NCBI GenBank assembly: GCA_947450865.1
Contig: CANFWR010000001.1
Coordinates: forward strand, 1-48,573
DNA length: 48,573 nucleotides
DNA from: Cytophagaceae bacterium
GTDB lineage: Bacteria; Bacteroidota; Bacteroidia; Cytophagales; Spirosomataceae
Direction of reading: 5' to 3'
Shown one piece after another: positions 25,157 to 31,573 of the stretch (position 1 is its first letter; each line of letters starts with the position of its first letter). Below the pieces are notes generated by a model, which was not told the DNA's origin, did no database searches, and worked only from the letters and a program-made list of their open reading frames with translations. The position numbers were made by a program, and so were the translations under genes.

Positions 25157-25197
25157 AGGGTGGGTAAAAATATTTTGAGAATCAAGAGATTAGTAGT

Positions 25198-25327
25198 CAG
25201 TGGACAGTCGGCAGTGGACAGGGAATGGTAAATGGTGAATGATCCTCAGGACTCCTTTAGAGTAGAGATGATAGAGTAGAGAGTATAGATGGTAAATGGT
25301 GAGTGGTAAATGGTAAATGGTGGATGA
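25198..25327 (+). repeat. Degenerate 7-bp tandem repeats
   Basis: CAGTGGA/CAGTCGG x3, AATGGTR-type x3, then 10 in-register heptamers TAGAGTA..TAAATGG (25258-25327). Confidence 0.85.
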
Positions 25328-25407
25328 TCCCTTCGGACTAAGACGAAGTCGACTAAGTCACACAGTGACGACTAAATCGCACAGCGATGACTAAAACACA
25401 CAGCGTT
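25328..25407 (+). repeat. GACTAA-linker / mini-hairpin array 1
   Basis: GACTAA-GACgaaGTC-GACTAA-GTCACacaGTGAC-GACTAA-ATCGCacaGCGAT-GACTAA-AACACacaGCGTT. Confidence 0.9.
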
Positions 25408-25429
25408 TTTAACCACATTTATGCTCTCC

Positions 25430-27862
25430 TTAATCCTCTACTTCCTCCGTTGTAGCTAAAATTGCCGCTCTTCTCGGCGCAGGCATTACTGAATTCTCCC
25501 CTTTTACAGCTTTCCAAATCACTTCGCTGAATTCTAAATCTGGAATCGAATCCTCTTTTTTGAAATTAAATTTCGCGCTTTTTTGAGCACTTGGTGTGTC
25601 TTTCACGTTTAGTTCAAACAAATTAGTGCGTGGTAATTCGTGGATAAACGGAGTCAAGTTAGGTGTTGCACTAAAGCTACGGAACATCGGAGTGGCCGCT
25701 GCATCGTATTGGCTCATTGGAGGCAAGCCAAGGATTAATTCAATCGTACGCAACATTGACGAAGTAGAGTAAGGCGTATGATCTATAAATCCACGCTTCA
25801 CAAATCCTCCCGCTAAATAAGCTGTTGTACGATGGGCATCAACATGGTCGGGGCCGTTTTGGGCATCATCTTCTACAATGAAAACGGCTGTTTCCTTCCA
25901 AATAGGGGACTTCGACAAATGCTCCACAAACAAGCCAATCGCGTAATCATTATCCGCTACATACGCGAAAGGGGTCTTTTTGCCCAGGCGTTGACCTTCT
26001 GTATGGTCGTTTGGAAATTGCATCGAATTAAAATGAGGGACCTGACCTAAAGCGAGCAAACGATCAAAGTCTCTTTTCCAAGCCTGAAAACGAGTCGTGT
26101 CCATCACATCTTGGTTAAATGACGAATAGTCTGGACAAAAGTGATCTTTAAGGGCAGGGATATTGGGTTTGAAACCGGTGGCAAATTCTCCGTAAGTACG
26201 GTAAGAAACGCCTGCGCGCTTGCAATAATCCCAGATAAATCCATTCTTCGGATTCGCTATCGCGCGGTTTCCTTCCCCGTCGTATTTACCACCACGTCCA
26301 CCATAGGAAGTAGGCCAGGTTTTCTCTAAATAATCGGTGGCGTGTGCTGATGTCGACCAGTTGTGACCATCCGAACTCACTTCGCCATCCACGTAGAAAT
26401 TATCTAACAAGACGAAATCTTTCACTAGCTTGTGCTGATTAGGCGTATATTTTTCGCCAAATAACAATAAAGTCGTATCTCCATTGCCTCCCACCACATC
26501 AGATAATACCTGATCGTAGGTACGGTTTTCTTTTAATATATAGTACACGTATTTTATCGGTGAAGCGTCCCCCACTTTCATTGGGATCGGATTTCCTATT
26601 TCCCCAGCGGCATTCATCTCGATATCCTTGTTATAGGGAGTATTTAAGTAGACGGCCTCTGAAAGCACGGCTAATTCTTTTACTGTAGGTTCCTTGAAGA
26701 TGGACATGGTCCCTTTCATTAAACCACCGATATATTCACTTGGTGCGTTCGCGGTATTATCCGATTTCTGGTAGGTAACCGTTTGTTTTTTGGCAATCGG
26801 ATTAGGTCCTTTCGGATTCGCGAAAGAAGAGAATCCTTTTCCATTCGCCACATATAATTTTCCTTTGACTATTTTCAACGACGTGGGATACCAGCCTACT
26901 GGAATGAAACCTAACGACTTCGATTGACCCGGTTTTTCTACTTCGAATACCGCTAAGCAATTGTTATCTGCATTCGATACGTATAATCTTTCTTCATCAG
27001 CGGATAAGGCCAAACCGTTTGTCGAACTGCCTTCCAAAGCATTAGGCACAAGTGCCGCATATAATACTTCAATCTCTTTACCAGCACGCGTATCCACGAC
27101 TGAAACAGAATTGTCATTAGCATTTGCTACAAATAATACGTTGCCATTTTTCGTTAGCACCATCTCGTTCGGGTGATCCCCCACGGCGATAGCCTTTAAA
27201 AAAGTCTTGGTTTTAATTTGAAACGGAAGAATCTGACGCGCTCCCCAAACCGAGATATAAAGCAATTCCTTCTTCTTGTCCAATAAGCACGTAAAGGCCT
27301 CCCCTGAAAGTTTGTGAATGGAAAGCACCGCTTTTTTAGCTGCATCAACCACATACAAGGAATTATTATCCTTAGTAACCACATATAAGATGCCAGATGC
27401 ATCATCGAACTCAATTCCTGTAGGAGAAATAATGGCCTTAGGATCAGTCGTTAAAGCAATTTTTTCTTGCTCCACTAGTTTTCCAGCTTCGATATGGAAA
27501 ACCAGAACGCAATTATCATTGCCTCCGGAAACAAATACAGTTTTATTATCGCCTGCTACTTTTAAGCCATACCATGATTTAGGTAGCTTTTGTGAATCTA
27601 GGACCTGGTTAGTGGCAGCATCGATTAGTTGCAAGCTTTGTACGCTTTGGCCATTATTCGTCACTAAAAGGTAACGCTGATCCGGCGAAACCACCACATT
27701 TAAGGGCAAATCTCCCAAAGCAACAGACGAGCCGTGCGGAGATAATTTCCAACCATTTGGAAGAGTCACTCGCTTCTGATTTAATTGTGACTTTAAATCC
27801 GATTGAGCCACAGACCCAAAAGTTAAGCCTAGGAAAAGAAGTGATAAGACGGTTGATTTCAT
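25430..27862 (-). CDS. Secreted YncE/YVTN beta-propeller plus phosphoesterase (AcpA/PLC-type) protein
   Basis: Signal peptide; YVTN-like repeats (VGDHPNEM, VANANDNSVSVVD, IPVGWYP); KENRTYDQV, EDDAQNGPDHVDAHR. Confidence 0.88.
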   Translation of the reverse strand: MKSTVLSLLFLGLTFGSVAQSDLKSQLNQKRVTLPNGWKLSPHGSSVALGDLPLNVVVSPDQRYLLVTNNGQSVQSLQLIDAATNQVLDSQKLPKSWYGLKVAGDNKTVFVSGGNDNCVLVFHIEAGKLVEQEKIALTTDPKAIISPTGIEFDDASGILYVVTKDNNSLYVVDAAKKAVLSIHKLSGEAFTCLLDKKKELLYISVWGARQILPFQIKTKTFLKAIAVGDHPNEMVLTKNGNVLFVANANDNSVSVVDTRAGKEIEVLYAALVPNALEGSSTNGLALSADEERLYVSNADNNCLAVFEVEKPGQSKSLGFIPVGWYPTSLKIVKGKLYVANGKGFSSFANPKGPNPIAKKQTVTYQKSDNTANAPSEYIGGLMKGTMSIFKEPTVKELAVLSEAVYLNTPYNKDIEMNAAGEIGNPIPMKVGDASPIKYVYYILKENRTYDQVLSDVVGGNGDTTLLLFGEKYTPNQHKLVKDFVLLDNFYVDGEVSSDGHNWSTSAHATDYLEKTWPTSYGGRGGKYDGEGNRAIANPKNGFIWDYCKRAGVSYRTYGEFATGFKPNIPALKDHFCPDYSSFNQDVMDTTRFQAWKRDFDRLLALGQVPHFNSMQFPNDHTEGQRLGKKTPFAYVADNDYAIGLFVEHLSKSPIWKETAVFIVEDDAQNGPDHVDAHRTTAYLAGGFVKRGFIDHTPYSTSSMLRTIELILGLPPMSQYDAAATPMFRSFSATPNLTPFIHELPRTNLFELNVKDTPSAQKSAKFNFKKEDSIPDLEFSEVIWKAVKGENSVMPAPRRAAILATTEEVED

Positions 27863-27944
27863 AATTATTTATTTGAAGAATAAATATAAGGATGCGCGGT
27901 TGATTTTCTATCCGGATTAAAACAGATTTTACAATTTGATATTG

Positions 27945-29198
27945 TTACTTTTCAATGACAAACTGATCCCGAACCTGTCCATCCGCAGCCACCCATTTAG
28001 CGACAAACTTCGACTTAGACACATCAATAATCATTGATCCGCCTACCTCTGTGTTTACATACACCGCTGATTTTAATGGGAAACCAGGCATTCTTCCGCC
28101 TAATCTACTCCCTGAACCATTGACCACATATATCACTCCTTGGCCTTTTTTGCCCACTACATAATGATTAGGTGCTTTTTCCGTAGCCACCACCTGCGTA
28201 GCTGCATCGAAGGAATTATTTACACCAAAATGTCCGCGCAAAGGCAGGGTCCGCTCATATACGTGACTGTGTCCTGCTAACACCACGTCCACATTGTACT
28301 TCTCAAAAAGAGGATTCACTTTTTCACGCATATTTTTCATATCTGACTCAGTATCTGAATCGTGCGATCCTTTAGAATAGGGTGGCTTGTGAAAATAGAC
28401 GATTGTGAAGGGGAGGCGATTTGCGGCTAAGTCTTTGGCCAACCAATCATATTGATCTCCTTTCCCATCCATCACCTGATTCCCCGCTGCATCGCGCAAT
28501 TCCGTATCAATTGAAATCAAGTGCAAGGAGCCGTAATCCACTGAATAATAGGACTCTGAATGAGACGCAACACCGCCAGCTTCCCCTTCTGTGGGTAATG
28601 AAAATATCTTGAAATAGGGTGGAACTGTGGGATCGTGTTTCCCTGCATAATCGTGATTTCCAGGGGATGGATATAAGGCCAAATTGGGAAAAAAGTCTGC
28701 CTGGTACACATCAAAGACGTATTTTTGGTATTCTTCATCCTTCCCATTATTATAGGCATTGTCTCCTAACCAAATCCAAGCATCGATCGGCTTATCTGCC
28801 GTATAATTCTTAATGGAAGAAATTACCGCATTTTGATTCGGTGTAACAAAGCCAAAATCCCCTAAAGCCCAAACCCGCACCGAATTAGGATCTCCGGCCT
28901 TTGGTTTGGTATGAAAAGTCCCCTGGTGATTCGAGGAGATTTTATACGTATAAGATTTATTAGGTGATAACCCTGACACTTTCAGCACATGATCAATCAC
29001 CCGATTCGTATCCGCAATCACGCGCGACTTCTTCTCCCCTTTTGTCTCCAAAGTCACTTGGCTAGTCTGAGGTGATGCCGTCCGCCATTGAATCAATACG
29101 GATTCAGACGTCATCGATTGTAAATAGGGGCCACGAACTATCGCATCGTTTTGGGAGAATGCGGCGAATGAAAGGAATAGGAGGAGGATTTTTTTCAT
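27945..29198 (-). CDS. Secreted purple acid phosphatase-family metallophosphoesterase
   Basis: Signal peptide, FN3-like N-domain (RGPYLQ), all five PAP motifs: GDFG, GDNAY, GNHD, YFH, GHSH. Confidence 0.9.
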   Translation of the reverse strand: MKKILLLFLSFAAFSQNDAIVRGPYLQSMTSESVLIQWRTASPQTSQVTLETKGEKKSRVIADTNRVIDHVLKVSGLSPNKSYTYKISSNHQGTFHTKPKAGDPNSVRVWALGDFGFVTPNQNAVISSIKNYTADKPIDAWIWLGDNAYNNGKDEEYQKYVFDVYQADFFPNLALYPSPGNHDYAGKHDPTVPPYFKIFSLPTEGEAGGVASHSESYYSVDYGSLHLISIDTELRDAAGNQVMDGKGDQYDWLAKDLAANRLPFTIVYFHKPPYSKGSHDSDTESDMKNMREKVNPLFEKYNVDVVLAGHSHVYERTLPLRGHFGVNNSFDAATQVVATEKAPNHYVVGKKGQGVIYVVNGSGSRLGGRMPGFPLKSAVYVNTEVGGSMIIDVSKSKFVAKWVAADGQVRDQFVIEK

Positions 29199-29209
29199 GG
29201 CGTTAAATT

Positions 29210-29244
29210 AATGGTAAATGATGAATGGTGAATGTTAAATGATT
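29210..29244 (+). repeat. 7-bp tandem repeats (AATGGTR type) x5
   Basis: AATGGTA AATGATG AATGGTG AATGTTA AATGATT. Confidence 0.85.
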
Positions 29245-29260
29245 AAAAAATCTTGAAAGT

Positions 29261-29478
29261 GTCGCTGCTACGCAGCTTAGTCGACTTCGTCTTAGTCATC
29301 GCTTCGCGATTTAGTCAAAGAGTCATCGTTACACGATTTAGTCGCCTGCGGCCTAGTCGACTTCGTCTTAGTCAATGGGTCGAGCGACTAAACGACATCG
29401 CTGCGAAGCAGTGCCGACTAAATCGCGAAGCGATGACTAAACGACGTAGTCGTGACTAAGTCACGAAGGGACGACTTT
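29261..29478. repeat. GACTAA-linker / mini-hairpin array 2 (two inverted halves)
   Basis: Six hairpins with TTAGTC linkers (29264-29373), then four with GACTAA linkers (29386-29478). Confidence 0.92.
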
Positions 29479-29579
29479 GGCGCTTTAACCCTCGAAAAAT
29501 CAATAATTGTTTGTATTTTTGGGCTTTAGTTGCTGAAAATCAGGCAGTTTTTATTTATTTCCCAAGAAAAAAAAGCATT

Positions 29580-30662
29580 ATGTCAAGTTTATCCAATCAA
29601 ACAGGAGTGTTGCACGGAGATGCGGTTCAAGAGTTATTTGAAATCGCTAAGAAAAATCAATTCGCTTTACCAGCGGTTAACGTAACAGGTACAGATACTG
29701 TGAATGCAGTATTAGAAGCAGCGAAAGCGGTGAATTCTCCGGTAATCATCCAATTCTCTAACGGTGGTGGTATTTTCTACGCTGGAAAGACGCTTTCTAA
29801 CGAGAATCAAGCTGCGGCAATCGCAGGTTCGATCTCAGGCGCTTACCACGTTCACCAAATGGCGAAAGCTTACGGTGTTCAAGTAGTTTTACACACTGAC
29901 CACTGCGCGAAAAAATTATTGCCTTGGATCGACGGTTTATTAGATGCTGGTGAGAAATTCTTCGCTGAGACAGGACAACCTTTGTTCTCTTCTCATATGA
30001 TTGATTTGTCTGAAGAGCCTTTGGAAGAAAACTTAGAAATCTGCGCTAAATATTTAGAGCGTATGTCTAAAATGGGCATGACCTTAGAAATCGAATTAGG
30101 TGTTACAGGTGGTGAAGAAGATGGCGTAGATAACTCTGACGTAGATTCATCTAAATTATATACACAACCGGAAGAGGTGGCTTATGCTTATGAAGTATTG
30201 TCCAAAATCTCTCACCGTTTCACGATCGCTGCGGCATTCGGTAACGTGCACGGAGTTTACAAGCCGGGTAACGTGAAGTTACAACCCGTGATTTTGAAGA
30301 ACTCACAAGAGTTTATCAAAGCGAAATACAATTTGACTCCTGAGAAACCAATCAACTTCGTATTCCACGGTGGTTCTGGTTCATCTCGCGAAGAAATCCG
30401 TGAGGCATTATCTTATGGTGCAATCAAAATGAATATCGATACAGATACGCAATGGGCATTCTGGGAAGGTATCTTAGGATTCTACAAAGCAAATGAAGCT
30501 TATTTACAAGGCCAAATCGGTAACCCAACAGGTGACGATTCTCCGAACAAGAAATACTATGACCCACGTGTTTGGTTACGTAAGGGCGAAGAGACTTTAG
30601 TAGCTCGTTTAAAAACAGCTTTCGAAGACTTGAACGCGACGAACGCGAATCAATATCTATAG
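29580..30662 (+). CDS. fbaA: Class II fructose-bisphosphate aldolase
   Basis: LHTDHC, SSHMIDLS, GNVHGVY, FHGGSG, PNKKYYDPR; ATG at 29580. Confidence 0.97.
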   Translation: MSSLSNQTGVLHGDAVQELFEIAKKNQFALPAVNVTGTDTVNAVLEAAKAVNSPVIIQFSNGGGIFYAGKTLSNENQAAAIAGSISGAYHVHQMAKAYGVQVVLHTDHCAKKLLPWIDGLLDAGEKFFAETGQPLFSSHMIDLSEEPLEENLEICAKYLERMSKMGMTLEIELGVTGGEEDGVDNSDVDSSKLYTQPEEVAYAYEVLSKISHRFTIAAAFGNVHGVYKPGNVKLQPVILKNSQEFIKAKYNLTPEKPINFVFHGGSGSSREEIREALSYGAIKMNIDTDTQWAFWEGILGFYKANEAYLQGQIGNPTGDDSPNKKYYDPRVWLRKGEETLVARLKTAFEDLNATNANQYL

Positions 30663-30707
30663 TCGATAGTCCGAAGGGAAAGAGTCCGGAGGGAAAAAAG
30701 ACTAAAT

Positions 30708-30741
30708 AAAAAGGAGTCGGAACAATTGTTCCGACTTTTTT
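30708..30741 (+). terminator. Intrinsic terminator of fbaA
   Basis: AGTCGGAACAATTGTTCCGACT palindrome followed by T-tract. Confidence 0.88.
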
Positions 30742-30782
30742 GTTGGACGAAAATAAAGAAATGATATTTGTGTAAATTTTAA

Positions 30783-30849
30783 TCCTTCGGACTAAGTCAC
30801 ACATTGACGACTAAGCTGCGAATGCAGCGACTAAGCCGAAGGCGACTAC
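30783..30849 (+). repeat. GACTAA-linker / mini-hairpin array 3
   Basis: TCCTTCG-GACTAA-GTCAcacatTGAC-GACTAA-GCTGCgaatGCAGC-GACTAA-GCCgaaGGC-GACTAC, ending 4 nt before the pirin ATG. Confidence 0.9.
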
Positions 30850-30853
30850 CCTT

Positions 30854-31573
30854 ATGAAAACCGAACTACACCCTGCCTCCTCCCGCGGAACAGCCGATCA
30901 CGGCTGGTTAAAGACCGCCTTTAGTTTTAGCTTTGCTGGTTATTATAATCCGGCGCGCATTCATTTTGGTGCGCTGCGCGTGCTGAATGATGATTTTATT
31001 GCGGCGGGGATGGGTTTTGGCAAACATCCGCATGATAATATGGAAATCGTGACCATTCCGATGAAAGGCGCGGTTGCGCATGAGGATTCGATGGGGACGA
31101 ATGGTATTATTAATGCGGGGGATGTGCAGATCATGTCTGCGGGTTCGGGGATTTACCATTCGGAGTTTAATGCGAGTCAAACAGAAGGTTTGGAACTATT
31201 TCAAATCTGGGTCATGCCCAAACTGAAAAATATCACACCGCGCTACGATCAGCGCACGTACAATCCTGCGGATTTTAAGGGACAATGGAAGACGGTGGTT
31301 TCGCCACTGGGAACGGACATTGATTCATTGCAGGTTAATCAAGATACGTATTTTAATATCACCGAAATTGCCGAAGGCGAAAGCCTGAGCTATGCTTTGC
31401 ATGGGGCACAGCAAGGAGCTTTTGTGTTTGTGATTGAAGGTGGAATTGAATTGGCTGGCGAGAATCTAGGACGTAGAGATGCGATCGGGATTTCGCAGAC
31501 GGATTCCATCGAGGTAAAGGCTTCAGCAGCAGGCACGAAGGTGCTGTTGATTGAGGTACCTATGGTTTGGTAG
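30854..31573 (+). CDS. Pirin-family protein (YhhW-like)
   Basis: DHGWL, FGALRVLNDD, HPHDNMEIVT, HSE, FQIW. Confidence 0.93.
   Translation: MKTELHPASSRGTADHGWLKTAFSFSFAGYYNPARIHFGALRVLNDDFIAAGMGFGKHPHDNMEIVTIPMKGAVAHEDSMGTNGIINAGDVQIMSAGSGIYHSEFNASQTEGLELFQIWVMPKLKNITPRYDQRTYNPADFKGQWKTVVSPLGTDIDSLQVNQDTYFNITEIAEGESLSYALHGAQQGAFVFVIEGGIELAGENLGRRDAIGISQTDSIEVKASAAGTKVLLIEVPMVW

Follow-up and report, generated by a model that had tools for sequence, protein, structure and literature searches.

GACTAA-hairpin arrays as candidate arms of a dispersed element around an Avd-like four-helix-bundle gene

Short intergenic repeats of bacteria, to our knowledge, largely lack a known cause, and we know of no function for the widespread protein family PF05635/TIGR02436. 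Here we describe a repeat family that may connect the two. Three intergenic arrays, in which a constant GACTAA linker alternates with variable mini-hairpins, lie in a 48,573-nt stretch of DNA from a Cytophagaceae bacterium (GenBank assembly GCA_947450865.1, contig CANFWR010000001.1, positions 1 to 48,573; hereafter the window). The genome that holds the window, 2.38 Mb in size, is labelled G000, and other G numbers denote genomes of the same genus.

Among described systems, the arrays are most readily compared with repetitive extragenic palindromes (REPs), their BIME and REPIN arrangements, and the REP-associated tyrosine transposases (RAYTs). Both are extragenic, multi-copy, dispersed, hairpin-forming and lineage-restricted, and in both, inverted copies flank a cognate gene (PMC3733652). 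REP superfamilies end in a GTAG or a CGTC tag, with stems of 5-13 bp (GTAG) or 8-9 bp (CGTC) (PMC3733652). The arrays studied here have neither tag; they pair a constant linker with variable stems of 3-5 bp, are organised as arm arrays that follow a neighbour rule, and flank a PF05635/TIGR02436 four-helix-bundle gene rather than one for an HUH tyrosine transposase. A first-pass annotation of the window had placed them in a REP/BIME-like family, an assignment that these differences do not sustain.

The intervening sequences of 23S rRNA that bear an open reading frame (ORF) encode a protein of the same family (S23p/PF05635/TIGR02436) in the loop between inverted arms. In contrast, all loci examined here lie between protein genes, most copies are gene-less, and the letters of the two arms are not mirror images. 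The accessory protein Avd of diversity-generating retroelements (DGRs; PDB 4DWL, 8UB7) has the same fold, with a pentamer precedent for holding repeated flipped-out bases (bioRxiv 10.1101/2023.10.23.563531), and some archaeal DGR target hairpins have G-R-A triloops (PMC4372165). Unlike in DGRs, no reverse transcriptase (RT), template repeat or variable repeat is seen beside the gene here, and the predicted ligand is single-stranded DNA (ssDNA). The Gut-1 RNA motif (RF01706) likewise alternates a short constant word with small variable hairpins; its word is different, it is described as a non-coding RNA of gut metagenomes (PMC2864571), and our loci gave no Rfam match to it at E<=10. Finally, the commonest hairpin here contains GCGAAGC, and C-G closure and sheared-pair loops dominate as in d(GCGNAGC) DNA mini-hairpins, which are known as single motifs at replication origins and promoters rather than as an arrayed alphabet (PMC13037366, PMC3201870). 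A search of open-access papers, with subscription papers outside its scope, found no description of a gene-plus-hairpin-array system; PMC5524665 lists such four-helix-bundle genes.

A four-helix-bundle gene between the arms

We propose that the arrays are arms of a dispersed element that brackets one clade of Avd-like genes, and that the encoded protein likely binds the GACTAA words as ssDNA and likely promotes the element's spread. From comparative sequence data, we judge this proposal to be about evenly poised between right and wrong. The first-pass annotation had suggested looking for an adjacent four-helix-bundle gene, and one is present: P0001, a 122-aa gene, sits between inverted arms at the pdhA-lamB locus of eight genomes. 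GACTAA-hairpin arms stand on both sides of the gene in all eight genomes that carry its clade (76-100% identity), and the clade occurs in none of the 41 array-negative genomes. The protein belongs to TIGR02436/PF05635 (TIGR02436, 103.8 bits against a cut-off of 24), and its structural model (pLDDT 94) matches 2GSC (TM-score 0.85), Avd 4DWL (TM-score 0.75 at 11% identity) and also 2RLD. The PDB entries 2GSC and 2RLD each list five chains. In the cryo-EM structure of Avd, identical residues of different protomers hold flipped-out stem-loop bases in crevices between five protomers (bioRxiv 10.1101/2023.10.23.563531). By analogy, one GACTAA word might be held in each protomer crevice of a predicted P0001 pentamer.

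The geometry of the arms is regular. The GACTAA strand is directed at the nearer gene in 90 of 112 arms, at a median distance of 21 nt, and the arms within 40 nt of a gene boundary comprise 23 at gene starts and 49 at gene ends. On either strand, a TTAGTC arm lies 5' and a GACTAA arm 3', each pointing outward and ending near the flanking host gene. Given this orientation, a full element runs from a TTAGTC arm across a loop to a GACTAA arm and lines both sides of the intergenic gap in which it sits. Some loops are empty, and others contain a terminator, the four-helix-bundle gene or other cargo.

As assembled, G000 itself lacks the P0001 gene; its contig stops after pdhA, and lamB is missing. 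In three runs that hold window DNA, the gene is found on a contig that joins it to lamB; this contig is covered at depths of 29.6, 181.9 and 11.1, and contigs over pdhA or array 2 at about 28, 174 and 11 in the same runs. Because these depths are so close, the window organism probably has the gene in an unassembled form; the comparison draws on one study, two runs of which are possibly the source.

A three-linker pattern matches 23 of the 64 genus genomes, with control counts of 0-1. Counts of 2 each in G002, G006 and G013 are unverified, and a looser pattern gave near-control counts there. A ribosomal-protein marker, missing from nine array-bearing genomes, places the other fourteen in one clade with 96-99% identity to G000, where other genomes reach at most 86%, and the arrays appear confined to this one clade among the 64 genomes scanned. 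The nearest named relative of P0001 comes from Aquirufa sp., so the genus is probably Aquirufa. No second origin of the hairpin alphabet was found among 400 other genomes of the phylum, of which one matched, with a plain tandem repeat. A metagenome scan gave at least 125 matches. Of those listed, 25 had two hairpin spacers, 17 were like G000 and another 4 were written in the same letters. The alphabet was absent from all 90 viral matches. The flanks of the listed metagenome matches and of the viral ones held no four-helix-bundle gene.

At the pdhA locus, a 169-aa orphan gene without an NCBIfam match is variably present between pdhA and the cassette (L011:5987-6496, L016, L020, L161, L162, L168), with remnants in G041 and G020.

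The hairpin alphabet and its neighbour rule

Hairpin counts were pooled from G000 and fetched loci of its relatives, and orthologous copies among them are not independent. Spacers between linkers are 9, 11 or 13 nt long in 489 of 517 cases, and 455 of these 489 form a perfect stem of 3-5 bp around a 3-nt loop. The reuse of hairpins noted at first pass stands, but its set of six letters was too small: the 455 perfect hairpins contain 31 distinct stems. The prediction of C-GNA-G DNA mini-hairpins fared better, as 452 of the 455 are closed by a C-G pair and 347 have GNA loops. Another 72 loops are ANA and 14 are ANC (95% together with GNA), and a few are flipped (TTC, TCC). C-G-closed GNA loops form very stable DNA mini-hairpins (PMC3201870, PMC13037366), and sheared A-A and A-C loops are the subject of works cited in PMC3201870. 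The hairpins carry a DNA-type signature that matches the sheared-pair mini-hairpins of DNA. The words are spaced 15, 17 or 19 bp apart, with no fixed helical phase. Taken with the DNA-type hairpins and the crevice precedent of Avd, which concerns RNA, this spacing leads us to infer that an oligomer would bind the words on a single strand.

Alternatively, the arms may be read as RNA, as protein-bound elements of untranslated regions kept by selection for stability, termination or translation, with the gene autoregulating through its own arms. Proximity of the arms to gene boundaries (the median of 21 nt given above) would suit such a role, but the arms aim at the nearest gene start or end alike, and mRNA would then carry either the GNA strand or its complement. 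The Avd precedent is itself an RNA stem-loop complex (bioRxiv 10.1101/2023.10.23.563531), whereas the loops and closing pairs here are the DNA set, and the RNA analogue of such a hairpin has a melting temperature of 39.0 C, compared with 76.5 C for the DNA form (PMC13037366; measured on a tetraloop, not a triloop). Array sequence is found in contigs of three metatranscriptome runs, which is not proof of transcription; in one run the gene was covered by no RNA contig, an absence that carries no weight. The trans association described below fits this reading equally well; the wholesale turnover of arms between close species weighs against it. We consider an RNA role unlikely.

Neighbouring hairpins seldom share a stem. 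Same-stem neighbours occur at 3 of 303 junctions, where 11% would be expected (p=6e-12; 123 distinct contiguous runs). Stem identity exceeds expectation at lag 2 (39/180) and lag 4 (19/60), and tandem block duplications are present in 11 of 47 long arms against 0.14 expected at random. The first-pass annotation had units being added or shuffled one at a time. Turnover between species does occur at the level of units; single-unit addition is not borne out, given the rarity of single duplications, the duplicated blocks and the swapping of whole arms. Arrays may instead change when blocks of at least two units are duplicated or when recombination takes place through the common GACT core, a mechanism suggested by its products.

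A possible reason for the rule comes from DNA fold prediction. Three-unit arms built from one letter are predicted to misfold, with a pair probability of 0.28 against 0.62 for natural arms, and natural arms fold better than one-letter arms in 94 of 98 cases. Differing neighbour stems would make an arm fold one way only and leave every word unpaired. Such a need for unique folding would explain why an alphabet exists at all.

The linkers of opposite arms are complementary, and fold-back is predicted. Across 28 elements, however, the letters of paired left and right arms match no more than those of random pairs (0.75 vs 0.85). A mirror-arm model with a long duplex is not supported, and no long perfect helix appears to be maintained, since the two arms are not mirror copies.

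Repeat dialects, their gene clades and competing explanations

The genus carries other four-helix-bundle genes, each clade of which has its own arm repeat, or dialect. In a tree of 58 of the 69 four-helix-bundle loci of the genus (11 were not parsed, three of them later assigned by best match), the dialects comprise GACTAA-hairpin (8 loci), TCCGGACT (13), the YGACTA[GT] heptamer (7) and CACTG/TGACTAC (15), plus three further types. G000 holds three genes of other clades, each within its own dialect (C5:11035-11385, C124:5059-5367, C130:1573-1878). Dialects replace one another at orthologous intergenic sites, where whole arms are swapped: in 11 genomes, the right arm of the fbaA-pirin gap is GACTAA-hairpin in three, TCCGGACT in two, YGACTA heptamer in four and CACTG-type in two.

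Arms of the same polarity surround distant relatives. We examined 79 of these, drawn from Bacteroidota, Patescibacteria and other groups: 64 have an AGT-rich arm on the 5' side and an ACT-rich arm on the 3' side, none has the opposite arrangement, and 62 cases are strong, against 1 of 140 control positions. In light of these ACT-rich arms, the GACTAA-hairpin unit looks like the 7-nt ACT-core repeat of the gene family in which the spacer has been exchanged for a self-contained mini-hairpin. More broadly, we advance the tentative idea, and doubt it more than we believe it, that free-standing Avd-like proteins are sequence-specific readers of ssDNA repeats that drive the spread of their own dialect, a non-HUH counterpart of REP-RAYT. 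Tolerance of a structured spacer would then have allowed an alphabet of non-pairing mini-hairpins without identical neighbours. Catalysis might come from host replication or recombination enzymes that the bound protein recruits or stalls, which are the likeliest candidates; the protein would in this way favour slippage or recombination by host enzymes at gene boundaries.

If a clade's protein acts on its dialect, gene and dialect should be associated beyond the gene's own locus. Because an arm next to a gene is associated with it through linkage alone, gene-flanking arms were subtracted from the genome-wide dialect counts; 40 of the 64 genomes had five or more matches and were retained. Median counts with the gene present and absent were 44.5 and 14 for the hairpin dialect (within the 23 array-bearing genomes) and 15.5 and 4.5, 51.5 and 5, and 20 and 7 for three other dialects (40 genomes). 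A matrix of genes against dialects is diagonal. Genes of the three other dialects are found in both host clades; for these dialects, permutation stratified by clade gave p=5e-5 (5e-5 and 3e-4 in the clades separately), and phylogenetic generalised least squares (PGLS) on 26 genomes gave p=0.002, 7e-5 and 0.35.

A number of observations weigh against the proposed pairing of protein and array. The value of 0.35 is that of the CACTG dialect, which thus fails PGLS, and a genome's top dialect is that of its own gene in only 24 of 34 genomes. The hairpin dialect itself gives a weaker signal: PGLS yields p=0.054 at the best lambda (0.022 at lambda 1), 0.013 with G000 scored as gene-positive and 0.076 after four low-count genomes are also dropped, and p=0.35 among six well-assembled genomes. 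Independent-pair tests, with 1-5 pairs, were underpowered and significant for no dialect. As the 14 array genomes with the marker form one clade, the contrast of 8/23 with 0/41 represents one origin, not eight. Moreover, 15 of the 23 array-bearing genomes lack a P0001-clade gene as assembled. G005, G011 and G061 are well assembled and keep their arrays without the gene; a profile search found none in G005, which is 99% complete in 6 contigs and has 39 array matches. Stems are equally intact without the gene (75/83 perfect) and with it (199/219), at loci picked by pattern matches, and faster array decay in the gene's absence was not seen. The terminator allele at the fbaA-pirin gap varies with dialect, which suggests exchange of whole-gap haplotypes between species. 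Finally, the ligand in the Avd structure is RNA, not DNA (bioRxiv 10.1101/2023.10.23.563531), and ViennaRNA draws only some of the window units as the proposed hairpins.

Several of these points would follow if the arrays were DNA prone to slippage and recombination that spreads alone, with the gene merely riding along and the genome-wide match arising from ancestry and gene flow. A single origin, the intact arrays of gene-less genomes, the missing effect among six well-assembled genomes and the haplotype-like co-variation of terminator and dialect are what passive spread would predict, and block duplications require no special enzyme. It leaves unexplained, however, why there is one dialect per protein clade, why arm polarity is the same around relatives in several phyla, why the dialect-specific diagonal appears within each of two host clades, and why single-unit duplications are nearly absent. 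We regard passive spread as improbable.

A third alternative takes up the first-pass suggestion of an enzyme encoded elsewhere: the repeats would be moved by a RAYT/HUH nuclease or copied by an RT. The logic of inverted repeats around a cognate gene with dispersed copies is REPtron-like, and HUH enzymes read ssDNA hairpins (PMC3733652). However, a profile for the Y1 transposase, PF01797, found none in G000; it matched a single genome of the 23 that bear arrays but 21 of the 41 that are array-free. This screen is imperfect, since it overlooked a RAYT-like gene of G043; that gene, with its own palindrome, lies downstream of fbaA in four array-free genomes (G043, G049, G063, G046; L152, L153, L155, L156) and matches NF047646 weakly (E=1.7e-5). 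The G043 protein gave no tblastn match in G000 at E<=1. The RT profile PF00078 matches only 6 of 23 array-bearing genomes, with none in G000, G041, G005 or G001, and no RT was found among the ORFs of the gene loci. We rejected both enzymes as drivers of the arrays on these distributions, and with the missing tags, short stems (3-5 bp against 5-13 and 8-9 bp; PMC3733652) and PF05635 gene noted above, an external enzyme of either kind seems very unlikely.

The comparative support for a predicted protein-repeat pairing leads us to use protein-cognate repeat system as a working class; the label of a new class rests on the comparative protein link and on a search limited to open-access papers. A single genus with several protein clades, each with its own dialect, and with dialects that swap at orthologous sites and track the gene in trans, offers matched protein-ligand pairs and ready negative controls. 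What the hairpin dialect contributes is an alphabet with a neighbour rule, a DNA signature, arms that do not mirror each other, and a trans test that spans swapped gene clades. Beyond plain heptamers, its 15/17/19-bp spacing and sheared-pair triloops predict an ssDNA ligand, and its neighbour rule predicts a need for unique folding. If the pairing of P0001 protein and GACTAA words is true, it would give free-standing Avd relatives a function and bacteria a second class of protein-paired repeats.

Two observations concern other clades. In a second four-helix-bundle group (L433-L439 and G000 C130), each flank is a two-armed hairpin, not one arm per side. The TCCGGACT-clade gene of G021 (L054, hemE side) has an internal TGA, and the G021 count of the TCCGGACT dialect, 83, is the highest.

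The arrays in the window and neighbouring repeats

Coordinates, linkers, letters (A to F, naming hairpins) and order of the three arrays were re-read in the window and agree with the first-pass description after small corrections: unit E of array 2 is preceded by GACTAG instead of GACTAA; array 2 also contains a filler of 8 nt, made of GACT and four further nucleotides, at 29317-29324; the B unit has one mismatch in array 2 and one in array 3; and the loop of the array 3 D unit is 4 nt long. The features are as follows.

25195..25335, no strand assigned: arms of other four-helix-bundle dialects next to array 1, with dialect-gene pairing taken from the four-helix-bundle loci of the genus
25336..25407, plus strand: array 1, outward arm (linker+GAC.GAA, linker+GTCAC.ACA, linker+ATCGC.ACA, linker+decayed unit)
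25430..27862, minus strand: flanking host gene, beta-propeller/phosphoesterase-like (context)
27945..29198, minus strand: flanking host gene, metallophosphoesterase-like (context)
29261..29373, minus strand: array 2 left arm (A, E after GACTAG, C', 8-nt filler, C, A, D)
29374..29385, no strand assigned: array 2 centre, 12 nt, an empty element whose loop holds no gene; G078 has the same centre
29386..29476, plus strand: array 2 right arm (hybrid 24-nt spacer, C, F, B with one mismatch, terminal GACT)
29580..30662, plus strand: flanking host gene fbaA, class II fructose-bisphosphate aldolase (NF006628 above cut-off)
30661..30742, no strand assigned: left arm of the fbaA-pirin gap in the TCCGGACT dialect, beginning at the fbaA stop, then a terminator-like inverted repeat (read by eye)
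30790..30847, plus strand: array 3 (B with one mismatch, D with 4-nt loop, E, terminal GACT)
30854..31573, plus strand: flanking host gene without an NCBIfam match, which we take to be pirin-like

Array 2 is an empty element. Arrays 1 and 3 each form the right arm of an element, with a left arm that belongs to another dialect. Array 1 ends 22 nt short of the stop of the gene at 25430-27862, and array 3 ends 6 nt ahead of the next ATG. In contigs from three of four runs, the base at window position 30804 restores a perfect B stem in array 3, so the window copy is a decayed allele.

On its own, the GACTAA word shows hardly any enrichment, with 34 occurrences in the window against a shuffle mean of 24.7. 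The strict unit GACTAA-hairpin-GAC, in contrast, occurs 42 times in G000, spread over about 15 intergenic loci, against 1, 3 and 2 in three shuffles; the copies elsewhere in the genome that the first-pass annotation called for are therefore present. The arrays correspond to no described Rfam family, as had been supposed: covariance models gave no match in the window at gathering scores, rRNA included, and at E<=10 two loci with complete cassettes gave chance matches only.

Interleaved with the GACTAA arrays, at 25195-25335 and 30661-30705, are arms in no fewer than four other four-helix-bundle dialects. The former interval holds CACTG-type repeats on the minus strand at 25201 and 25216, ATGGTRA at 25225-25310 and TAGAG-type repeats at 25258-25277, with a TCCGGACT-type repeat at 25331. 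Words of the TCCGGACT dialect can be recognised in hybrid fillers within the arrays, suggesting recombination via the shared GACT core.

A further repeat, roughly 100 bp long and with the palindromic core TTGACA-N5-TGTCAA (14 matches to the core in G000), often adjoins GACTAA arms. Its sites include G000 C2 at 397, 514, 2535, 32526 and 33358, C45, C66, C73, C122, L013, L015, L018, L023 and L030. It brackets small accessory genes, including Fic and others that are presumably an RHH+PIN-like toxin-antitoxin pair, a DUF4160/DUF2442-like pair and a HigA-like remnant, and these repeats are possibly the cassette ends of a separate system.

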